DNA of 57,538 bases from Promethearchaeota archaeon (GCA_048939015.1 JBHLPW010000030.1:1-57538), one strand, 5' to 3'; positions 22,187 to 44,409 are shown, numbered from the stretch's first letter. A program made the numbers and translations. Notes: a model not told the origin generated them from the letters alone.

Positions 22187-23326
22187 TTATCTCCATAAAT
22201 TTAATGTTTCCAACTTAAATTTTATTTTTTTTGACAACCATTTTGGAATAAGATTAGTGTCGTTAAACCAAAGTGATAGGTTCTTCTGAAATTTTGGATT
22301 TTCAAAGATCGTATTCAATTCTACTTGATTCAAAGAATCCAAATAATTCTCTTTTATTAAAAATAAAACCACTGAAGGATATCCGCTTTCAAGTCTCTCT
22401 GCAATCTCTTCTTTAAATACTCTCTTTGCTAGAGGATCTCCGGCATCTATGAGAGCTTTCAGCAATGGAAAAGCTAGATTTCTGTGCAAAAGACGTGTAT
22501 CGTATTTATTTTCATACCATGCTTGTATATTAGAACAATGTCCCCAAAATTCAGTTTCGGGAGAGATATCATATTTACCAAATCGGACCCCATGCATTGA
22601 ATCATCAAGTGCTTCTGCTGCTTCATCGATAGATTCAATTCCATCATACTCATTAAATTTATCTTTAGCTATACTTAATAATAGGTATTTACAATGATTG
22701 AATAGTTTTCCTCCCACATAGATATTAGTCCTATTATTTTCTAATCTGAGAACTAGATGATTATTTACTCTAAATTCAGGCCACGTCTCACTATACGGCT
22801 TTCTTCTTATGTCTAAAGGTTTTGGAACTACAAATATATTAGGTGATATCCCCTCACCTATATTTTCTGCTAGATTTTCAAAGATATTTTCCGCACTGTG
22901 TAGATTTTCTAATCTTTCTTGTCGTGTTTCTTGACCTATTGGATCTTCTACATCATTATCCACACATTTTGTTCCGATGACTATGATTGGAACATTTCCC
23001 GCTTCTCTTCTTATCAATTGAATATTTTCAAGGATATGAGCCAATGAATTTGCATCCTTCACATCATACACTATTAATCCTCCATTTGCGCCTCGACAAT
23101 AATAAGGTGCTAAAAATCGAAATCTTTTCTCTGATCCCACATCCCATATTTGGAATTTAATATTATGTCCAAGGATATTTTGAGTTCGAACAAAAAAATC
23201 AACACCAATCGTTAACTTTGTTTCACTATTAAAGAGATCATAACAAAAATTACGCGCAAAATATGACTTTCCTTCTGACGCTTCACCAATAAGTACTATT
23301 TTATAAGTTAAATCATATCCTACCAT
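22187..23326 (-). CDS. degenerate Rab-like GTPase fused to an EFWGHCSNIQAW domain
   Basis: GEASEGKS, TIGVDF, IWDVGS, G4 reads GTKCV, G5 absent; C-terminal domain aligns with the middle of 40177..42123. Confidence 0.85.
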   Translation of the reverse strand: MVGYDLTYKIVLIGEASEGKSYFARNFCYDLFNSETKLTIGVDFFVRTQNILGHNIKFQIWDVGSEKRFRFLAPYYCRGANGGLIVYDVKDANSLAHILENIQLIRREAGNVPIIVIGTKCVDNDVEDPIGQETRQERLENLHSAENIFENLAENIGEGISPNIFVVPKPLDIRRKPYSETWPEFRVNNHLVLRLENNRTNIYVGGKLFNHCKYLLLSIAKDKFNEYDGIESIDEAAEALDDSMHGVRFGKYDISPETEFWGHCSNIQAWYENKYDTRLLHRNLAFPLLKALIDAGDPLAKRVFKEEIAERLESGYPSVVLFLIKENYLDSLNQVELNTIFENPKFQKNLSLWFNDTNLIPKWLSKKIKFKLETLNLWR

Positions 23327-23514
23327 TTGATATAAAAGCCCACTTTTTTAGGTTAAATCATCAAAATTTCTTTTGGAATCTACACTTTATTATCTATAAA
23401 GTTGAGTAATTAATCTAAATCGTTTAACCCTACATAAGAAAAAGCATTTTTCCCTTATAAATCTCTCAGTTCGCCGTTTTTTCACATGAAATAAAGGAAA
23501 TATTGTATCAATGA

Positions 23515-24063
23515 TTAAGCTTTAATACTTTGGATTTTGGGTATATCATATATCTTTCTATTAGCCATTAATTTTAGTAATCCAGAAAATAATTCATTTA
23601 CATTTTCTCCAGTTTTACTGGAACATTCAATAAATCCACTCATACCAATCGATTTGGCAGTATCAACTCCTTCTTCCCAAGAAATTTCTCTAATCTCATC
23701 TAGATCGTATTTACTTCCTGCTAACACGATTGGAAAATTTTGATCTATCTTTCTTAAAAGAGAAAGCCACTCCTTAATATGATAAAATGAAGTTTTATCA
23801 GTTATATCATATAATAAAATTCCCCCAACTGCCCCATATATATATTCAGGAAACATAAAACGAAATCGCCCTTCACCAGCAAAATCCCCAATTAATAACT
23901 TTATTTCTTTACCACCCAATTCTAAATCCTTGGTTTCAAAATCAACTCCTATAGTCTTACGAAAATCTGAATTAAATTCATCAGTTAAGAATCTTTTTCT
24001 TAATGAGGTTTTCCCAGACCCACTATCTCCGAAAATAACGATTTTACAAATCAAGTCAGACAT
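23515..24063 (-). CDS. Rab-like small GTPase (Ras superfamily)
   Basis: GDSGSGKT, TIGVDF, DFAGE, SKYD, ECSSK; no C-terminal prenylation Cys. Confidence 0.92.
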   Translation of the reverse strand: MSDLICKIVIFGDSGSGKTSLRKRFLTDEFNSDFRKTIGVDFETKDLELGGKEIKLLIGDFAGEGRFRFMFPEYIYGAVGGILLYDITDKTSFYHIKEWLSLLRKIDQNFPIVLAGSKYDLDEIREISWEEGVDTAKSIGMSGFIECSSKTGENVNELFSGLLKLMANRKIYDIPKIQSIKA

Positions 24064-39560: not shown

Positions 39561-40121
39561 CTAAACCATTTTAGGGATTAGATCATCGGACTTTTTCTTT
39601 TTTGTATGGATTTCCAAAATTTTACGAGTTAGATCTTGGAGAGCTTCCTCTAAAATATCACCCTCTTCTGGTGAGACTTCGATATATACACCTCCTTTCT
39701 TCTCGGCAAATTCCCGAGCCTCCTCTCGAATAAGTTTGTTATTTGTTTGTTTCATTAATTCGATCGTGTTCCCAATTAAAATAAAAGGTATAAAGCCAGT
39801 CGTCTCATTTATCTCGGAAAACCATTCCCTTAATTCCTTATAGGTGAGTTCTTGTGATAAATCAAAAACCAATAACGCTCCTGCTGAACCTTTATAAAAA
39901 TTATCACGTAAAGACTTAAATCGATCTTGGCTTCCCACATCCCATATACTTAATGTAGCAACTTCTCCTCGTTCATATTCAATATCTCTTGTAAGAATAT
40001 CAACTCCAACAGTTAACTTGTAATTTCCAAAAAACCTATTTTTTCCGATTTTTTTAATTAATTTATTCTTACCCTTTGTTTCAGCACCTACCAGCAAAAT
40101 CTTTAACTTGAAGTTTGGCAT
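39561..40121 (-). CDS. degenerate Rab-like small GTPase
   Basis: G1 GAETKGKN, G2 TVGVD, G3 WDVGSQ, G4 GNTIE, G5 EVSP; GGAGG before ATG 40121. Confidence 0.88.
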   Translation of the reverse strand: MPNFKLKILLVGAETKGKNKLIKKIGKNRFFGNYKLTVGVDILTRDIEYERGEVATLSIWDVGSQDRFKSLRDNFYKGSAGALLVFDLSQELTYKELREWFSEINETTGFIPFILIGNTIELMKQTNNKLIREEAREFAEKKGGVYIEVSPEEGDILEEALQDLTRKILEIHTKKKKSDDLIPKMV

Positions 40122-40176
40122 AATGTTTTTTCCCTCCAATTATTGTAGAAAAAAACTTAGTATTTATAATTTGATG

Positions 40177-42123
40177 TTATGTTTGAGATTGGGTCTTAAC
40201 AGTAACAGTTATAGGTTCTTTCATTCGTCCACCACCTCCTCCAGGAGGTTTAAAGATAAATGGATAGGGAAAAAATCCGTCCTCATCATCATCTCTTTTG
40301 TGTCCGCACCATTCACAGGAATCCTTATCTTTCGGAATTTCTTTTCCACAATATGCACACCTAGAAATTACTCTTTTAACCTCATTTAGAAATTTCTTAG
40401 CAAAAATTTGCGCTTCTCCATCTCCTAATGCATTTTCATTAAAAGGATGTCCCATTAAAAATTCCATTCTTTCATTCCGAGATAATCTGGGTATATTGAT
40501 TTCCTGACCGCTAAGTTTCAAATTAATTGCTTGAATGCAATCTACAATATCTAAGGATTTATCTTCATCAGCTACACTCATGAGATTTTCGAGCGTTGTT
40601 TTAAGAGTAAGCAAAAATTTAGGATTGAAAAACTCTAAATGAGGTCGATGAGGGAATATTCTTGCCTTTAATAGAATACTCGAAATAAATATATCTTTAC
40701 CCTTAGGGAGATTTAAAATTTGTGTTATAATATCTGCACTTAACCTTGGAAACTTTGAAACAATAGTTCTAAGGAATTGAGAAAATATCCTCCGGTCAGA
40801 AGATAGATTTTTAATAAGGTCAGATGTCTCTAGAATTAATCTGAATTCTTCTGAATTGAACACATTTAAATAACCTTGAGTAAGGAGGTACTGAACGACA
40901 GAAGGGTAACCACTCTCGAGTCTCAGAGCAATTTCTTCTTTATAGATTCTTTTTGCCTTAGGGTCTCCCGCTATAGTCAACTCCCTTAGCAATGGAAATG
41001 AAATATTACTCATGAGAATCCTTGTATCATAATCATGTTCCACCCAAGCTTGAATATTAGAACAATGGCCCCAAAATTCTTGCTCTGGGGTAATATCATG
41101 GCTTTGATTTAAATCAGGACGTGCCATGGGACCCCTTACAATCCTGTTTTGAAATACATGTTTATTATATACTTTAGCTGCCTCATCGATAGAATCAACC
41201 TCATCATACAATGATATATCGTCTCTTGGAATGTTTAAGATTAAACGAATACACTGTATAAACCTTTTACCATTAACATAGATATGTGTTCTTCCATTTA
41301 TCAATTTGAGGGTGATATATTGATTTATTTCTTCTTCTATCGTTGCTTTTGGTATACTCTTATACTTTAAATTTTGATTCAACCATTCTTCACCAAACAA
41401 TTTCTTTTTTTTAGATTTTTTAAAAAATTTTGTAAAAATCATATCTTCTCGAATTAACATAACTAGTATAAATATGCCGGCTATCCCAAACATACTCCCG
41501 AAGAGTATACCGAAAAAGATTAAACCGTTCAAGAATTGTGGCTTTAATCCAATATAATTTAGTTCGATCCAGGCTATATCATCTTTCCGAGGTGCACCCT
41601 CTTTAGAATATCCTTGAATATATCCATCATTCTCTCCACCTCTTCCATATAAACAAATACTTATACCATCATTTACGATATAGTCAGGTTTCAAAGGAAT
41701 TCTAAAATCAAAACCATCGCATAAAATGTAACCATAAGATATCCCCAATTTCGGCTTATTATTCCAGGTTATAGTCATTTCATCCCACTTTTCATAGATA
41801 AGTTCTCCTCCCACATCAACCATATCCGATCCATAGTCGAAATTTACGATAATTGCTACCGTCCTCCACCCCTTAGGAAGTGAAGAAATGTTAAAGTGAT
41901 AAAACGTGTAAACCCTTCCCAAATCATAATTTCCTACGCGAAGATACTCATCTGCTCCAAAATTTGCTTTAGGATCATACTCTGCCACATAAGCATCTTT
42001 TTCAACCTTGATTGTCCGTTCAAATCCTCGAAAATGAGCCGTTATAAAGATTAAAGTCAAAGCTAAAATTCCAAGAACAATAATAAATATGATCCAAAAC
42101 TGTTTTTTAGTCCTGACTCTCAT
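40177..42123 (-). CDS. receptor-like protein: TM - DNRLRE/CBM96-like domain - TM - EFWGHCSN domain - helical region - zinc ribbon
   Basis: DAYV...NFG...WDEMTITWNNKP...YSKEG; second TM LIFFGILFGSMFGIAGIFILVMLI; EFWGHCSNIQAW; CAYC...CEWC. Confidence 0.8.
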   Translation of the reverse strand: MRVRTKKQFWIIFIIVLGILALTLIFITAHFRGFERTIKVEKDAYVAEYDPKANFGADEYLRVGNYDLGRVYTFYHFNISSLPKGWRTVAIIVNFDYGSDMVDVGGELIYEKWDEMTITWNNKPKLGISYGYILCDGFDFRIPLKPDYIVNDGISICLYGRGGENDGYIQGYSKEGAPRKDDIAWIELNYIGLKPQFLNGLIFFGILFGSMFGIAGIFILVMLIREDMIFTKFFKKSKKKKLFGEEWLNQNLKYKSIPKATIEEEINQYITLKLINGRTHIYVNGKRFIQCIRLILNIPRDDISLYDEVDSIDEAAKVYNKHVFQNRIVRGPMARPDLNQSHDITPEQEFWGHCSNIQAWVEHDYDTRILMSNISFPLLRELTIAGDPKAKRIYKEEIALRLESGYPSVVQYLLTQGYLNVFNSEEFRLILETSDLIKNLSSDRRIFSQFLRTIVSKFPRLSADIITQILNLPKGKDIFISSILLKARIFPHRPHLEFFNPKFLLTLKTTLENLMSVADEDKSLDIVDCIQAINLKLSGQEINIPRLSRNERMEFLMGHPFNENALGDGEAQIFAKKFLNEVKRVISRCAYCGKEIPKDKDSCEWCGHKRDDDEDGFFPYPFIFKPPGGGGGRMKEPITVTVKTQSQT

Positions 42124-42291
42124 TTTTCTCAGATTACACCCTTCTTATCGTTAGGGAATTTAATCTTTTTTCTCTCCCAATATTAATAAAAAACCCTAAC
42201 TATTTATATTTCCTTTTTGATGGTACTGGAAAACTTTTTTTAACAAAACAAATATAGCTGAATGGATTAATAGAGTTAATTTCTTTATATC

Positions 42292-42678
42292 CTAATTATC
42301 TTTTTTTAAAAGTTCTGATATTTCACGTGCAACCCGCTCGCATTCATGAAAGATAAGACCTAATTTCGCTTTTTCAGTAGTAGAAACTGCTAACACCGCA
42401 GTGTCGGCATCAAATACTAATAGATATCCATCAACTCCCTTGATATATAGTTGGTTGAATTCACCAATTTCCATTTCTACCATAGCCATTTCAGATAACG
42501 AGAGCATTGAAGCGACCATAGCCGAAATTCTCGTTTCATTATAACCTTCAGGGATTAGTGAGAGAATTGGGAGCCCTTCAACGGAAGAAATTGTGGCAAT
42601 TGAAATAGTAGAGTTATTCGATAATAATTTTTTTAAAATTCTTTCCAATTCCTTTAGCAAATTATTTTCTCCTTTCAT
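42292..42678 (-). CDS. Roadblock/LC7 (MglB-like) protein
   Basis: SSVEGLPI, ISAMVASMLSLSE, QLYIKGVDGYLL, KAKLGLIF. Confidence 0.92.
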   Translation of the reverse strand: MKGENNLLKELERILKKLLSNNSTISIATISSVEGLPILSLIPEGYNETRISAMVASMLSLSEMAMVEMEIGEFNQLYIKGVDGYLLVFDADTAVLAVSTTEKAKLGLIFHECERVAREISELLKKDN

Positions 42679-42699
42679 ACTTTTTGGTACCTATGTTTC

Positions 42700-42870
42700 T
42701 TAACGAATTTTTTTAGCAATTTCATTTAGTTTAGCTAATTGCTTACGATCTATAGGGATATCCTCATTCGGACTATAAGTTTTAAGAGTTTTTAATAAGT
42801 CTTGACACATCTCTAAAAGAAATTCTATATCTTTCGGTATTCGAATATAGTTATTTTCGATATTGGGCAT
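42700..42870 (-). CDS. 56-aa helical hypothetical protein (not in ORF track)
   Basis: MPNIENNYIRIPKDIEFLLEMCQDLLKTLKTYSPNEDIPIDRKQLAKLNEIAKKIR*; ends 21 nt before the Roadblock start on the same strand. Confidence 0.6.
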   Translation of the reverse strand: MPNIENNYIRIPKDIEFLLEMCQDLLKTLKTYSPNEDIPIDRKQLAKLNEIAKKIR

Positions 42871-42897
42871 CTCAAGTCATTGAATTAGCTATAATAT

Positions 42898-43047
42898 TGT
42901 ATATTAAAGTATATACATCTGTATATTAATTGTATACTTGCATATTTAAATTTTTCTGTTTTAATATCATTTAAATGTTTATCTCCACATATTTATATAT
43001 GATAATATACAATTAATATACAAAGAAAAATATACAAATAATATACA
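42898..43047. promoter_or_regulatory. divergent promoter with an inverted array of AATATACA boxes
   Basis: AATATACA at 43004, 43015, 43029, 43040; its reverse complement TGTATATT at 42898 and 42920, and TGTATACT at 42931; perfect 17-bp inverted repeat 42920-42936 / 43006-43022. Confidence 0.7.
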
Positions 43048-43092
43048 CAATGCAATAAACGCCAATAAAACACCAATAAAAGGTGAGAAATT

Positions 43093-43914
43093 ATCTCTGA
43101 ACTTGAACTGAGCAACAAAGACCGTATTTTGAATCTTCTTAAAACTGATTCATTAACAAGCAATGAAATTGCAAAAAGGCTCAATTTAAGTAGACAAGAT
43201 ACTCGTACTTATCTTCAACGTTTGAAAAAACGAGAAAGGATTAAAACCCTCGGGAAACGAGGAAGGCAATACATCTACACCTATCATATTCCTGAAGAGT
43301 CAGAAAGACCTCAAATTGATACTAATATGCTAGTAGAAGTCTTACGAGATTATATCTCTGAACCCAGTTTTAAAAGCGAAGTTAGAAAGAAAATTATAGA
43401 GCTCGAAGCGAAGCTTAATAGTATAGCCTCGAGAACTGAAGGAGAATATGACGAATTAGCAAAGGAACTTGAAATGCTACAATCCATCGAACCCTCTGAT
43501 AAACAAAAAGCAAGATCCTTAGAATTCTTAACCAGGGAAACATTACAAACCCCTGTTTTAGAAAATATTGATAATACCTTGTTAAATTTAATTGATACCA
43601 TTCCGGAAGTAAGGGCTGCCACTCTCGTTTCCGTTGAAGGAGAAATTATAGCTTCGGCTTTTCCTCAAGATGTAGATGATACAACACTTGCCGTAATGAC
43701 TGCCGCACTTCTTTCACTAGCGGAAAGTGCCATAACATTAATAAAAAGCGGTGAATTTGAACAATTATATATACGGGGAAACAATGGATACCTTCTGGTT
43801 ATACCAGCAGGCCCTAAAGCTGTATTTTCGGTTTCTACAACTCAAGATGTTAAACTTGGACTAATATATCTCGATTGCAAGCGAGCAGTTGAACAAATAA
43901 CAAAATTAATTTAA
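43093..43914 (+). CDS. winged-HTH - coiled coil - Roadblock/LC7 fusion protein
   Basis: KDRILNLLK..LTSNEIAKRLNLSRQDTRTYLQRLKK..I and C-terminal VSVEGEII...AALLSLAE...QLYIRGNNGY...VKLGLIY; proposed ATC start at 43093 (ORF track: TTG 43129). Confidence 0.88.
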   Translation: MSELELSNKDRILNLLKTDSLTSNEIAKRLNLSRQDTRTYLQRLKKRERIKTLGKRGRQYIYTYHIPEESERPQIDTNMLVEVLRDYISEPSFKSEVRKKIIELEAKLNSIASRTEGEYDELAKELEMLQSIEPSDKQKARSLEFLTRETLQTPVLENIDNTLLNLIDTIPEVRAATLVSVEGEIIASAFPQDVDDTTLAVMTAALLSLAESAITLIKSGEFEQLYIRGNNGYLLVIPAGPKAVFSVSTTQDVKLGLIYLDCKRAVEQITKLI

Positions 43915-43983
43915 TACTGTATCTTTCTAATTTGAACATTCTAATAAGCAAGACTAAATTTTTTTACTTTAAAAGAAGTAAGT

Positions 43984-44409
43984 TTAGCTAAGTGAATTAA
44001 TGTGGCTTACATATCCTTTCTCAATTTCCCGCTTTCTTAAGATTTTTGCGATTTTATCCGACGCATTCTTACAATCAAATAAAACTAGCCCCATTTGCGC
44101 TTTTGGTGTAGTTGAAACTGCCAATATGGCTTCCTCTGTTCCAAGAATCAATAAATAACCATCAATTCCCTTGACATATATTTGTTCAAATATCCCTATT
44201 TTCATATCTTCGACAGCCATTTCGGATATAGAACGTATTGAAGCAACCATTGCAGCGATTTTCTGATTATTATATTTTCGGGGTATTAGCGAGAAAATTG
44301 GGATACCTTCTATTGAAATAATTATCGCAAATTTTAATTCTCTATTATTATGTAACAAATCTTTTAATACAGCTTCTAGTTTCTCTGTTGTAGTATTTTC
44401 CTTATTCAT
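43984..44409 (-). CDS. Roadblock/LC7 (MglB-like) protein
   Basis: ISIEGIPI, IAAMVASIRSISE, QIYVKGIDGYLL, AQMGLVL. Confidence 0.92.
   Translation of the reverse strand: MNKENTTTEKLEAVLKDLLHNNRELKFAIIISIEGIPIFSLIPRKYNNQKIAAMVASIRSISEMAVEDMKIGIFEQIYVKGIDGYLLILGTEEAILAVSTTPKAQMGLVLFDCKNASDKIAKILRKREIEKGYVSHINSLS

Follow-up and report, generated by a model that had tools for sequence, protein, structure and literature searches.

The contig JBHLPW010000030.1 of a Promethearchaeota archaeon (GCA_048939015.1), whose 57,538 nt are here called the window, carries at positions 39561-44409 a locus in which a winged helix-turn-helix (wHTH) protein fused to a Roadblock domain is encoded divergently from a 56-residue protein, a stand-alone Roadblock of 128 residues (Roadblock-128) and a 648-residue membrane protein containing an unnamed domain that we term EFWGHCSN. 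We read this locus, with moderate confidence, as a genus-restricted, self-regulated Roadblock cassette in which the wHTH-Roadblock regulator, the 56-residue protein and Roadblock-128 are the fixed parts and the EFWGHCSN protein is the usual cargo. The CBM96 ectodomain of the membrane protein, a Rab-like pseudo-GTPase and a third Roadblock (Roadblock-141) are lineage-specific additions. The six open reading frames (ORFs) and their family identities, as given in a preliminary description of the locus, are upheld: the coordinates were confirmed, and Pfam and NCBIfam profile scans of the six proteins (cut-offs quoted throughout are the curated or gathering cut-offs of each family) give matches to Ras, CBM96/DNRLRE, Robl_LC7 and HTH_24.

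The reading is based on gene order and on the promoter. A search of 41 related genomes with the 648-residue protein supplied the flanks that were read, further loci being added later, and the distributions of regulator, EFWGHCSN protein and GTPase were counted across 54 genomes of the genus; all loci come from this one Lokiarchaeial genus, and the counts are not independent observations. The unit of wHTH-Roadblock gene, boxed promoter, 56-residue gene and Roadblock recurs at 16 loci in different species genomes, and the Roadblock-128 orthologue (59-77% identical) directly follows the 56-residue gene at all 15 readable loci. An EFWGHCSN orthologue is the third gene at 11 loci, i.e. at 11 of the 14 core loci with a readable flank. 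Full-length regulator orthologues are present in 16 of the 54 genomes and EFWGHCSN orthologues in 18; eight genomes have both, and the two are adjacent in all seven in which they share a contig, while in G009 they lie on two short contigs. Synteny of the core is conserved among relatives, and its genes are not chance neighbours. In the nearest relative, G046 (about 87% nucleotide identity), a gene for an unrelated 301-residue zinc-ribbon protein (L055, contig 73, 4081-5192, corresponding to window 40172-43660) takes the place of everything from the EFWGHCSN gene through Roadblock-128, the 56-residue gene and the promoter into the 5' part of the regulator gene. Of the regulator a 72-residue 3' fragment remains there, and the pseudo-GTPase is intact.

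The 258-bp divergent intergenic region is conserved near base for base across nine species. Immediately downstream of each of its TATA boxes, in mirror orientation, stand AATATACA boxes, four per side in the window, and most relatives have two such boxes, in 11-bp phase, on the regulator side. The exact 8-mer is present in six copies in the 258 bp, where about 0.03 would be expected, and its genome-wide rate is 0.1 per kb; the tandem pattern is seen at only one other site in the 4.86-Mb genome. Box arrays are present at every locus that has the regulator and the 56-residue gene, and were not found in the regulator-less loci of G008, G006 and G049 or beside the solitary regulator gene of G069. 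As the tandem arrays are near-exclusive to this promoter and confined to regulator-bearing loci, the regulator is most likely a local autoregulator, and the recurrence of the pattern at a single other genomic site indicates that it appears to control its own module and not a downstream regulon. Placed between the TATA element and the expected start site, the boxes would suit a repressor that prevents the pre-initiation complex from assembling.

The preliminary description had assigned all these genes to one pathway. For the regulator and the operon of the 56-residue, Roadblock and EFWGHCSN genes this is supported, since a bidirectional, box-bearing promoter joins them, whereas the ectodomain, the pseudo-GTPase and the third Roadblock vary between loci; the label of a surface-to-transcription system, which depends on just these three variable parts, is not sustained. 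The third Roadblock had further been described as following the wHTH-Roadblock gene. It is in fact encoded on the minus strand, convergent with that gene and therefore outside its transcription unit; no boxes were found upstream of it, and membership of the regulator operon is ruled out by the opposite strand together with this box-free upstream region. The slot convergent with the 3' end of the regulator gene is occupied in G023 by a Roadblock-141 orthologue (67% identical; L071, 2029-2430) and in G012 by a canonical small GTPase (L068, 6955-7503).

The regulator itself, read from TTG 43129 to 43914, matches HTH_24 with 23.0 bits (24.3 once the N-terminal extension described below is included; cut-off 21.9), placing it above the family threshold among winged-helix one-component transcription regulators, and matches Robl_LC7 with 67 bits (cut-off 23). 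Of its 64 homologue clusters, 62 span the Roadblock part with an identity of 57% or more, and the two weakest are limited to the N-terminal 39%. Translation probably begins at a non-canonical codon. Between an in-frame TGA and TTG 43129 the frame holds no ATG, GTG or TTG, and the TGA sits within a perfect GGTGA Shine-Dalgarno sequence. The arrangement GGTGA-N6-ATC is kept in eight species, in which it is followed by a conserved in-frame peptide (..ELSNKDRIL..), and in the orthologues the frame is open for 275-291 codons. By this conservation the coding region reaches upstream of TTG 43129, with AUC (ATC 43093) as the probable start, and the GGTGA/AUC region is a possible site of translational control.

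The product of the first gene of the leftward operon has no family match in Pfam, NCBIfam or PADLOC. Orthologues aligned from nine loci are 39-66% identical, and because the protein is conserved in nine or more species with 13 invariant columns we regard the ORF as a real gene. Roadblock-128, encoded next, is 50% identical to Roadblock-141, and the three Roadblock domains of the locus rank among the four closest Roadblock paralogues in the genome.

The EFWGHCSN protein combines a predicted membrane-spanning N-terminal part with a cytoplasmic part. Two hydrophobic segments lie at residues ~9-29 and ~199-225; the sequence preceding the first has a net charge of +4 and that following the second one of +5, a bias which predicts that residues 31-195 lie outside the cell. 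Residues 37-127 of this ectodomain match both CBM96 (38.7 bits, cut-off 26, Pfam) and DNRLRE (43.2 bits, cut-off 34, NCBIfam), the CBM96 match covering profile positions 4-98 of 164 only. A search with the cytoplasmic part returned 670 homologues. Among the 120 best-scoring homologue clusters, all at least 49% identical over the cytoplasmic part, 47 possess the CBM96 ectodomain, and the remaining ~60% begin just after the position of the second transmembrane (TM) segment and are soluble. A family of 2,486 cluster representatives (E<=1e-3) shares the EFWGHCSN domain, frequently as tandem copies; its 15 invariant columns include C37, E95, C100, S101, N102 and W106; the invariant C37 and C100, with a near-invariant His (H99) beside C100, suggest a metal site or catalytic centre. 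No Pfam or NCBIfam model covers the domain, either in this protein or in the 92 family members scanned. Fusion partners among 82 representatives are Ras-type GTPases (12), leucine-rich repeats (LRR, 12), tetratricopeptide repeats (TPR, ~10) and receiver (REC) domains (5), and four of the eight copies in this genome are fused to a GTPase or lie within 3 kb of one, against ~10% expected. In G010 and G007 cassettes of a Roadblock and a GTPase-EFWGHCSN fusion stand beside the module. Elsewhere in the window (22187-24063) a 379-residue GTPase-EFWGHCSN fusion adjoins a separate 182-residue GTPase.

Towards the C-terminus, the four cysteines of the zinc ribbon are invariant or nearly so in 51 homologues, as is, to a near-invariant degree, the tail FFPYPFIFKPPGGGGG (residues 617-648, window 40180-40275), which is predicted to be disordered and may be a short linear motif. 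AlphaFold models of the whole cytoplasmic part (AF2; predicted local distance difference test score, pLDDT, 68) and of the EFWGHCSN domain alone (pLDDT 73) show a small β-meander with helices, a helical repeat, the zinc ribbon and the disordered tail. For the cytoplasmic part Foldseek returned nothing at E<=0.001, and the best VIA Z of 8.2, over ~94 helical residues, reflects a common helical arrangement; for the domain alone Z did not exceed 3.8 and no Foldseek E value fell below 0.3, so that no fold is assignable, which does not imply a novel one. A complex prediction for the cytoplasmic part with two copies of Roadblock-128 scored 0.00, without controls, and speaks neither for nor against binding. 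In G006 the gene that separates the Roadblock from a soluble EFWGHCSN gene (L026, 7047-8435) specifies a membrane-anchored extracellular repeat protein of 462 residues without a Pfam match, in which some eight internal repeats are framed by a signal or TM segment at the N-terminus and a TM anchor at the C-terminus.

The last leftward gene encodes a Rab-like protein whose start is most likely ATG 40121, because the resulting MPNFKLK matches the orthologues. The 55-bp gap that separates it from the EFWGHCSN gene is compatible both with co-transcription and with a separate GTPase promoter. The protein is homologous to the Ras/Rab G domain (Pfam Ras, E 4e-33, 114.6 bits, cut-off 21.6), and its closest solved relatives are Rab11 (7.5e-28) and Thor-Rab (1.2e-23). 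Aligned to Rab11A, its motifs read GAETKGKN at G1 (S to N), DVGSQ at G3 (G to S), NTIE at G4 and SPE at G5, departing from the G1 GxxxxGK[ST], G3 DxxG and G4 [NT]KxD patterns, and an 88%-identical orthologue has GADTKGKD at G1. A canonical parent Rab-like GTPase, ~53% identical and bearing GAAAVGKT, DIGGQ, NKAD and SAK, is found in all 54 genomes of the genus (here G000 contig 17, 18587-19111). With paralogues in G046, G024, G047, G005 and G054 the window protein forms a derived set that has lost NKxD and SAK throughout (NKxD is missing from all six degenerate paralogues) and in which the P-loop lesion differs in each member while switches I and II are invariant. Such a pattern is what would be expected if partner-binding surfaces were kept while nucleotide handling decays. 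The degenerate character ascribed to this GTPase in the preliminary description is thus borne out, the switches being invariant and G1, G3, G4 and G5 eroded, and we refer to it as a pseudo-GTPase, with the caveat that conservon GTPases with a deviant G4 that has no lysine still hydrolyse GTP (PMC4316618). It directly follows the EFWGHCSN gene only in this genome (G000) and in G024, two of ~16 loci with a readable downstream flank. A general link of the pseudo-GTPase subfamily to EFWGHCSN or Roadblock genes was rejected, eight other loci having no such neighbours.

Table 1. Features of the wHTH-Roadblock locus, in window coordinates.
Feature	Position	Strand	Remarks
Rab-like pseudo-GTPase, 186 aa from ATG 40121	39561..40121	-	ORF finder's TTG start 40139
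55-bp gap, EFWGHCSN gene to GTPase: TTATAAATA, T7 run, GGAGGG Shine-Dalgarno	40122..40176	-	
648-aa protein: TM1, CBM96/DNRLRE ectodomain, TM2, EFWGHCSN domain, helical repeat, zinc ribbon, conserved tail	40177..42123	-	
C-terminal CxxC...CxxC zinc ribbon, aa 587-609	40297..40365	-	Weak Pfam zinc-ribbon matches
EFWGHCSN domain, aa 255-450, ~190 aa	40774..41361	-	Unnamed Asgard domain family
CBM96/DNRLRE-like ectodomain core, aa 37-127	41743..42015	-	Between TM1 42037-42099 and TM2 41449-41529
168-bp gap, Roadblock-128 to EFWGHCSN gene: T-rich runs, TATA-like ATATAAATA, GGGTG Shine-Dalgarno	42124..42291	-	
Stand-alone Roadblock/LC7 (Roadblock-128, 128 aa)	42292..42678	-	Robl_LC7 33.4 bits, cut-off 23
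56-aa conserved small protein, first gene of leftward operon	42700..42870	-	
Leftward promoter: TATA-like GCATATTTAAAT 42940-42951, then four boxes 42930-37, 42920-27, 42909-16, 42898-905	42898..42951	-	
Rightward promoter: TATA-like ACATATTTATATATGA 42987-43002, then four AATATACA boxes at 43004, 43015, 43029, 43040	42987..43047	+	
Shine-Dalgarno GGTGA and ATC 43093	43082..43095	+	Probable non-canonical regulator start
wHTH - helical linker - Roadblock regulator	43093..43914	+	273 aa from ATC; 261 aa from TTG 43129
Third Roadblock/LC7 (Roadblock-141, 141 aa)	43984..44409	-	Robl_LC7 35.5 bits, cut-off 23

MglB is the GTPase-activating protein (GAP) of MglA, and Ragulator/LAMTOR contain Roadblock dimers. 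The most likely mechanism for the cassette can be sketched as follows. A wHTH-Roadblock oligomer would bind the box arrays, as the operator anatomy and the co-occurrence of arrays and regulator suggest, and the bound protein would repress both its own gene and the divergent operon. By analogy with MglB, Ragulator and the Roadblocks of conservons, the Roadblock domain of the regulator would be a partner-binding, i.e. sensor, module, and the co-expressed Roadblock-128, alone or together with the 56-residue protein, or a Rab-like GTPase or pseudo-GTPase could be its partner; either would create a feedback loop. Judging from its fusions, the protein composed of EFWGHCSN domain, helical repeat and zinc ribbon could be a scaffold or regulator in small-GTPase signalling; here and in part of the family it is tethered to the membrane by the predicted TM-CBM96-TM module. 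The specific proposal that docking of a Roadblock partner or of a Rab-like (pseudo)GTPase on a wHTH-Roadblock dimer switches DNA binding, with the EFWGHCSN protein as membrane-proximal or cytosolic input, is tentative and, taken as a whole, rather unlikely; the direction of signal flow and all protein-protein contacts are ones that we infer.

Several observations weigh against the cassette as we read it. Core loci without an EFWGHCSN gene exist (G012, G058 and G062), as do EFWGHCSN orthologues without the regulator (G008, G006, G049, G056 and L033), which means that the third gene is separable from the core; those in G008, G006, G049 and G061 keep the upstream Roadblock alone, and those of G056 and L033 are solitary. 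Both intergenic gaps contain internal TATA-like sequences and T-runs, so that the extent of each transcription unit is ambiguous. Assignment of the boxes as the putative operator of the regulator has adjacency and co-occurrence as its whole basis. Two types of regulator are without a Roadblock, namely those of G015 (L021, 2996-3928) and G013 (L028), which have the same promoter and whose wHTH is preceded by an N-terminal domain of ~200 residues with a weak similarity to Gelsolin that does not reach the cut-off (E 8e-4), and that of G043, which consists of the wHTH and helical region only; the Roadblock is therefore dispensable for the DNA-binding function. Finally, the Roadblock domain of the regulator is 40% identical to Roadblock-128 and 57-60% identical to an unlinked stand-alone Roadblock kept in 48 of 53 related genomes (57% to the copy in this genome, G000 contig 54, 4240-4626), and this closer relationship weakens the idea of a heterodimer with its neighbour. 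From these similarities both the sensor domain of the regulator and the pseudo-GTPase appear to derive from broadly conserved "core" genes, a Roadblock and a GTPase, and the canonical parent GTPase and the conserved stand-alone Roadblock, which are genomically unlinked, may be a cognate pair.

Given the separability of the third gene, it has to be considered that the regulator, the 56-residue protein and Roadblock-128 are the whole functional unit, and that the EFWGHCSN gene, the pseudo-GTPase and the third Roadblock are mere neighbours, brought together because GTPase and Roadblock genes are dense and locally duplicated in these genomes. The genome has 68 GTPase-like ORFs, core and EFWGHCSN gene each occur without the other, the pseudo-GTPase subfamily is mostly located elsewhere, both gaps contain possible promoters and T-runs, and according to Tran et al. 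(PMC10933270) the operons of MK-D1 do not, as a rule, combine GTPase with Roadblock genes. We nevertheless give this explanation a fairly low probability, because the EFWGHCSN gene is third at 11 of the 14 core loci with a readable flank, because a Roadblock precedes it even where the regulator is missing (G008, G006, G049 and G061), and because regulator and EFWGHCSN gene are adjacent in every one of the seven genomes that have both on one contig. A module replaced in the nearest relative and patchily distributed (16-18 of 54 genomes), with toxin-antitoxin genes inserted beside several loci and a cargo domain that is combined with LRR, TPR and GTPase domains and forms tandem arrays, could also be a variable island of conflict or defence type, in which NLR/ROCO-like proteins would use EFWGHCSN for sensing or as an effector, under local repression by the wHTH protein. 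This is very unlikely in our view: PADLOC gave generic wHTH similarity to CasR/Csa3 only, no effector domain such as a nuclease or protease was recognised, and the module is not bounded by an integrase or repeats.

An outside-in relay, in which CBM96 senses a glycan and signals through the EFWGHCSN part to a pseudo-GTPase/Roadblock switch, whereupon the wHTH-Roadblock protein alters transcription, has a low probability as a general account of the locus. It draws on the predicted topology of the membrane protein (N-terminus in, ectodomain out, C-terminus in), on CBM96 and DNRLRE scores above both curated cut-offs, and on the definition of CBM96 as an alginate-binding module, although this function is established for its founding member alone (PMC9971899). 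Of the 120 best-scoring clusters 47 have the membrane form, the repeat protein beside the soluble EFWGHCSN gene of G006 points to a recurrent link with surface proteins, and receptor gene and regulator have a promoter in common. However, about 60% of those clusters are soluble and yet within the same module, and the pseudo-GTPase is adjacent at two loci only and was kept in G046 after the module was lost. The putative operator is locus-specific, so the sole visible transcriptional output would be the module itself, and the match to CBM96 is confined to 95 of 164 profile positions. The relay is possible for the membrane-anchored variants and is not required by the conserved anatomy.

Asgard archaea have dozens of small GTPases and Roadblocks, whose partners are hard to assign because operons generally do not contain them (PMC10933270). 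A Roadblock operon that is conserved and carries a predicted operator is a useful exception to the pattern seen in MK-D1, and one that is directly testable, as it offers a readable predicted operator, a Roadblock fused to a DNA-binding domain and two candidate partner proteins. The presence in one genome of the pseudo-GTPase and its canonical parent provides a built-in comparison. Study of the cassette would open a first way into the function of the EFWGHCSN domain and into the wiring of Roadblocks in the closest prokaryotic relatives of eukaryotes. If a partner-switched wHTH-Roadblock protein proves true, it would be a one-protein link from Ras-superfamily/Roadblock signalling to promoter occupancy in these archaea.

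The preliminary description knew of no account of such an architecture, and a limited search of the open-access literature likewise found no description of a wHTH-Roadblock transcription factor; for the underlying idea there are precedents. Roadblock dimers act on small GTPases, and operons of membrane sensor, Roadblock and GTPase exist (PMC4316618, PMC13343842, PMC10933270). The closest described systems are the actinobacterial conservons, which comprise a sensor, a Roadblock, a GEF-like (guanine nucleotide exchange factor) protein and a small GTPase, and the proteobacterial MglA group 3, in which MglA and MglB occur with a REC-like/wHTH protein and transcription regulation has been proposed (PMC4316618, PMC13343842). 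With both the cassette shares logic, not components. In conservons (CvnA-D; mfp operon) the G4 motif of the GTPase likewise departs from NKxD, but the histidine-kinase-like CvnA and the DUF742/CvnC protein are unmatched among the six proteins of the locus in Pfam and NCBIfam, and the GTPase here is Rab-like and not MglA-like, degenerate in G1, G3, G4 and G5, and rarely present; moreover, in this archaeal host the DNA-binding domain is fused to the Roadblock and is proposed to control the operon. MglA group 3, of β- and γ-proteobacteria and with one or two MglB, resembles the cassette in placing a predicted wHTH protein in a small GTPase/Roadblock neighbourhood, but there the wHTH is on a separate REC-like protein and MglA is always present, whereas here it is fused to the Roadblock, the GTPase is optional and degenerate, and a predicted operator can be read in the promoter.

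Like MglB and Ragulator, the Roadblocks have the Robl_LC7 fold, which forms dimers that dock on small GTPases, but the Roadblock of the regulator, the one protein to match the NCBIfam MglB equivalog, reaches 12.7 bits against a cut-off of 200, and the LAMTOR3 family (MAPKK1_Int) scores 15.2 bits against 25 (Pfam). EFWGHCSN recalls Roc-COR/ROCO proteins in architecture only, recurring beside Ras/Roc-type GTPase, LRR and TPR domains without detected sequence or structural similarity to COR or any solved fold. Thor-Rab (PDB 7ezb) and Rab11 are the best sequence matches of the pseudo-GTPase and share its Rab-like switches I and II, whereas in the window protein other residues replace the Ser/Thr with which G1 coordinates Mg2+, the glycine of DxxG, the lysine and aspartate of NKxD, and SAK.

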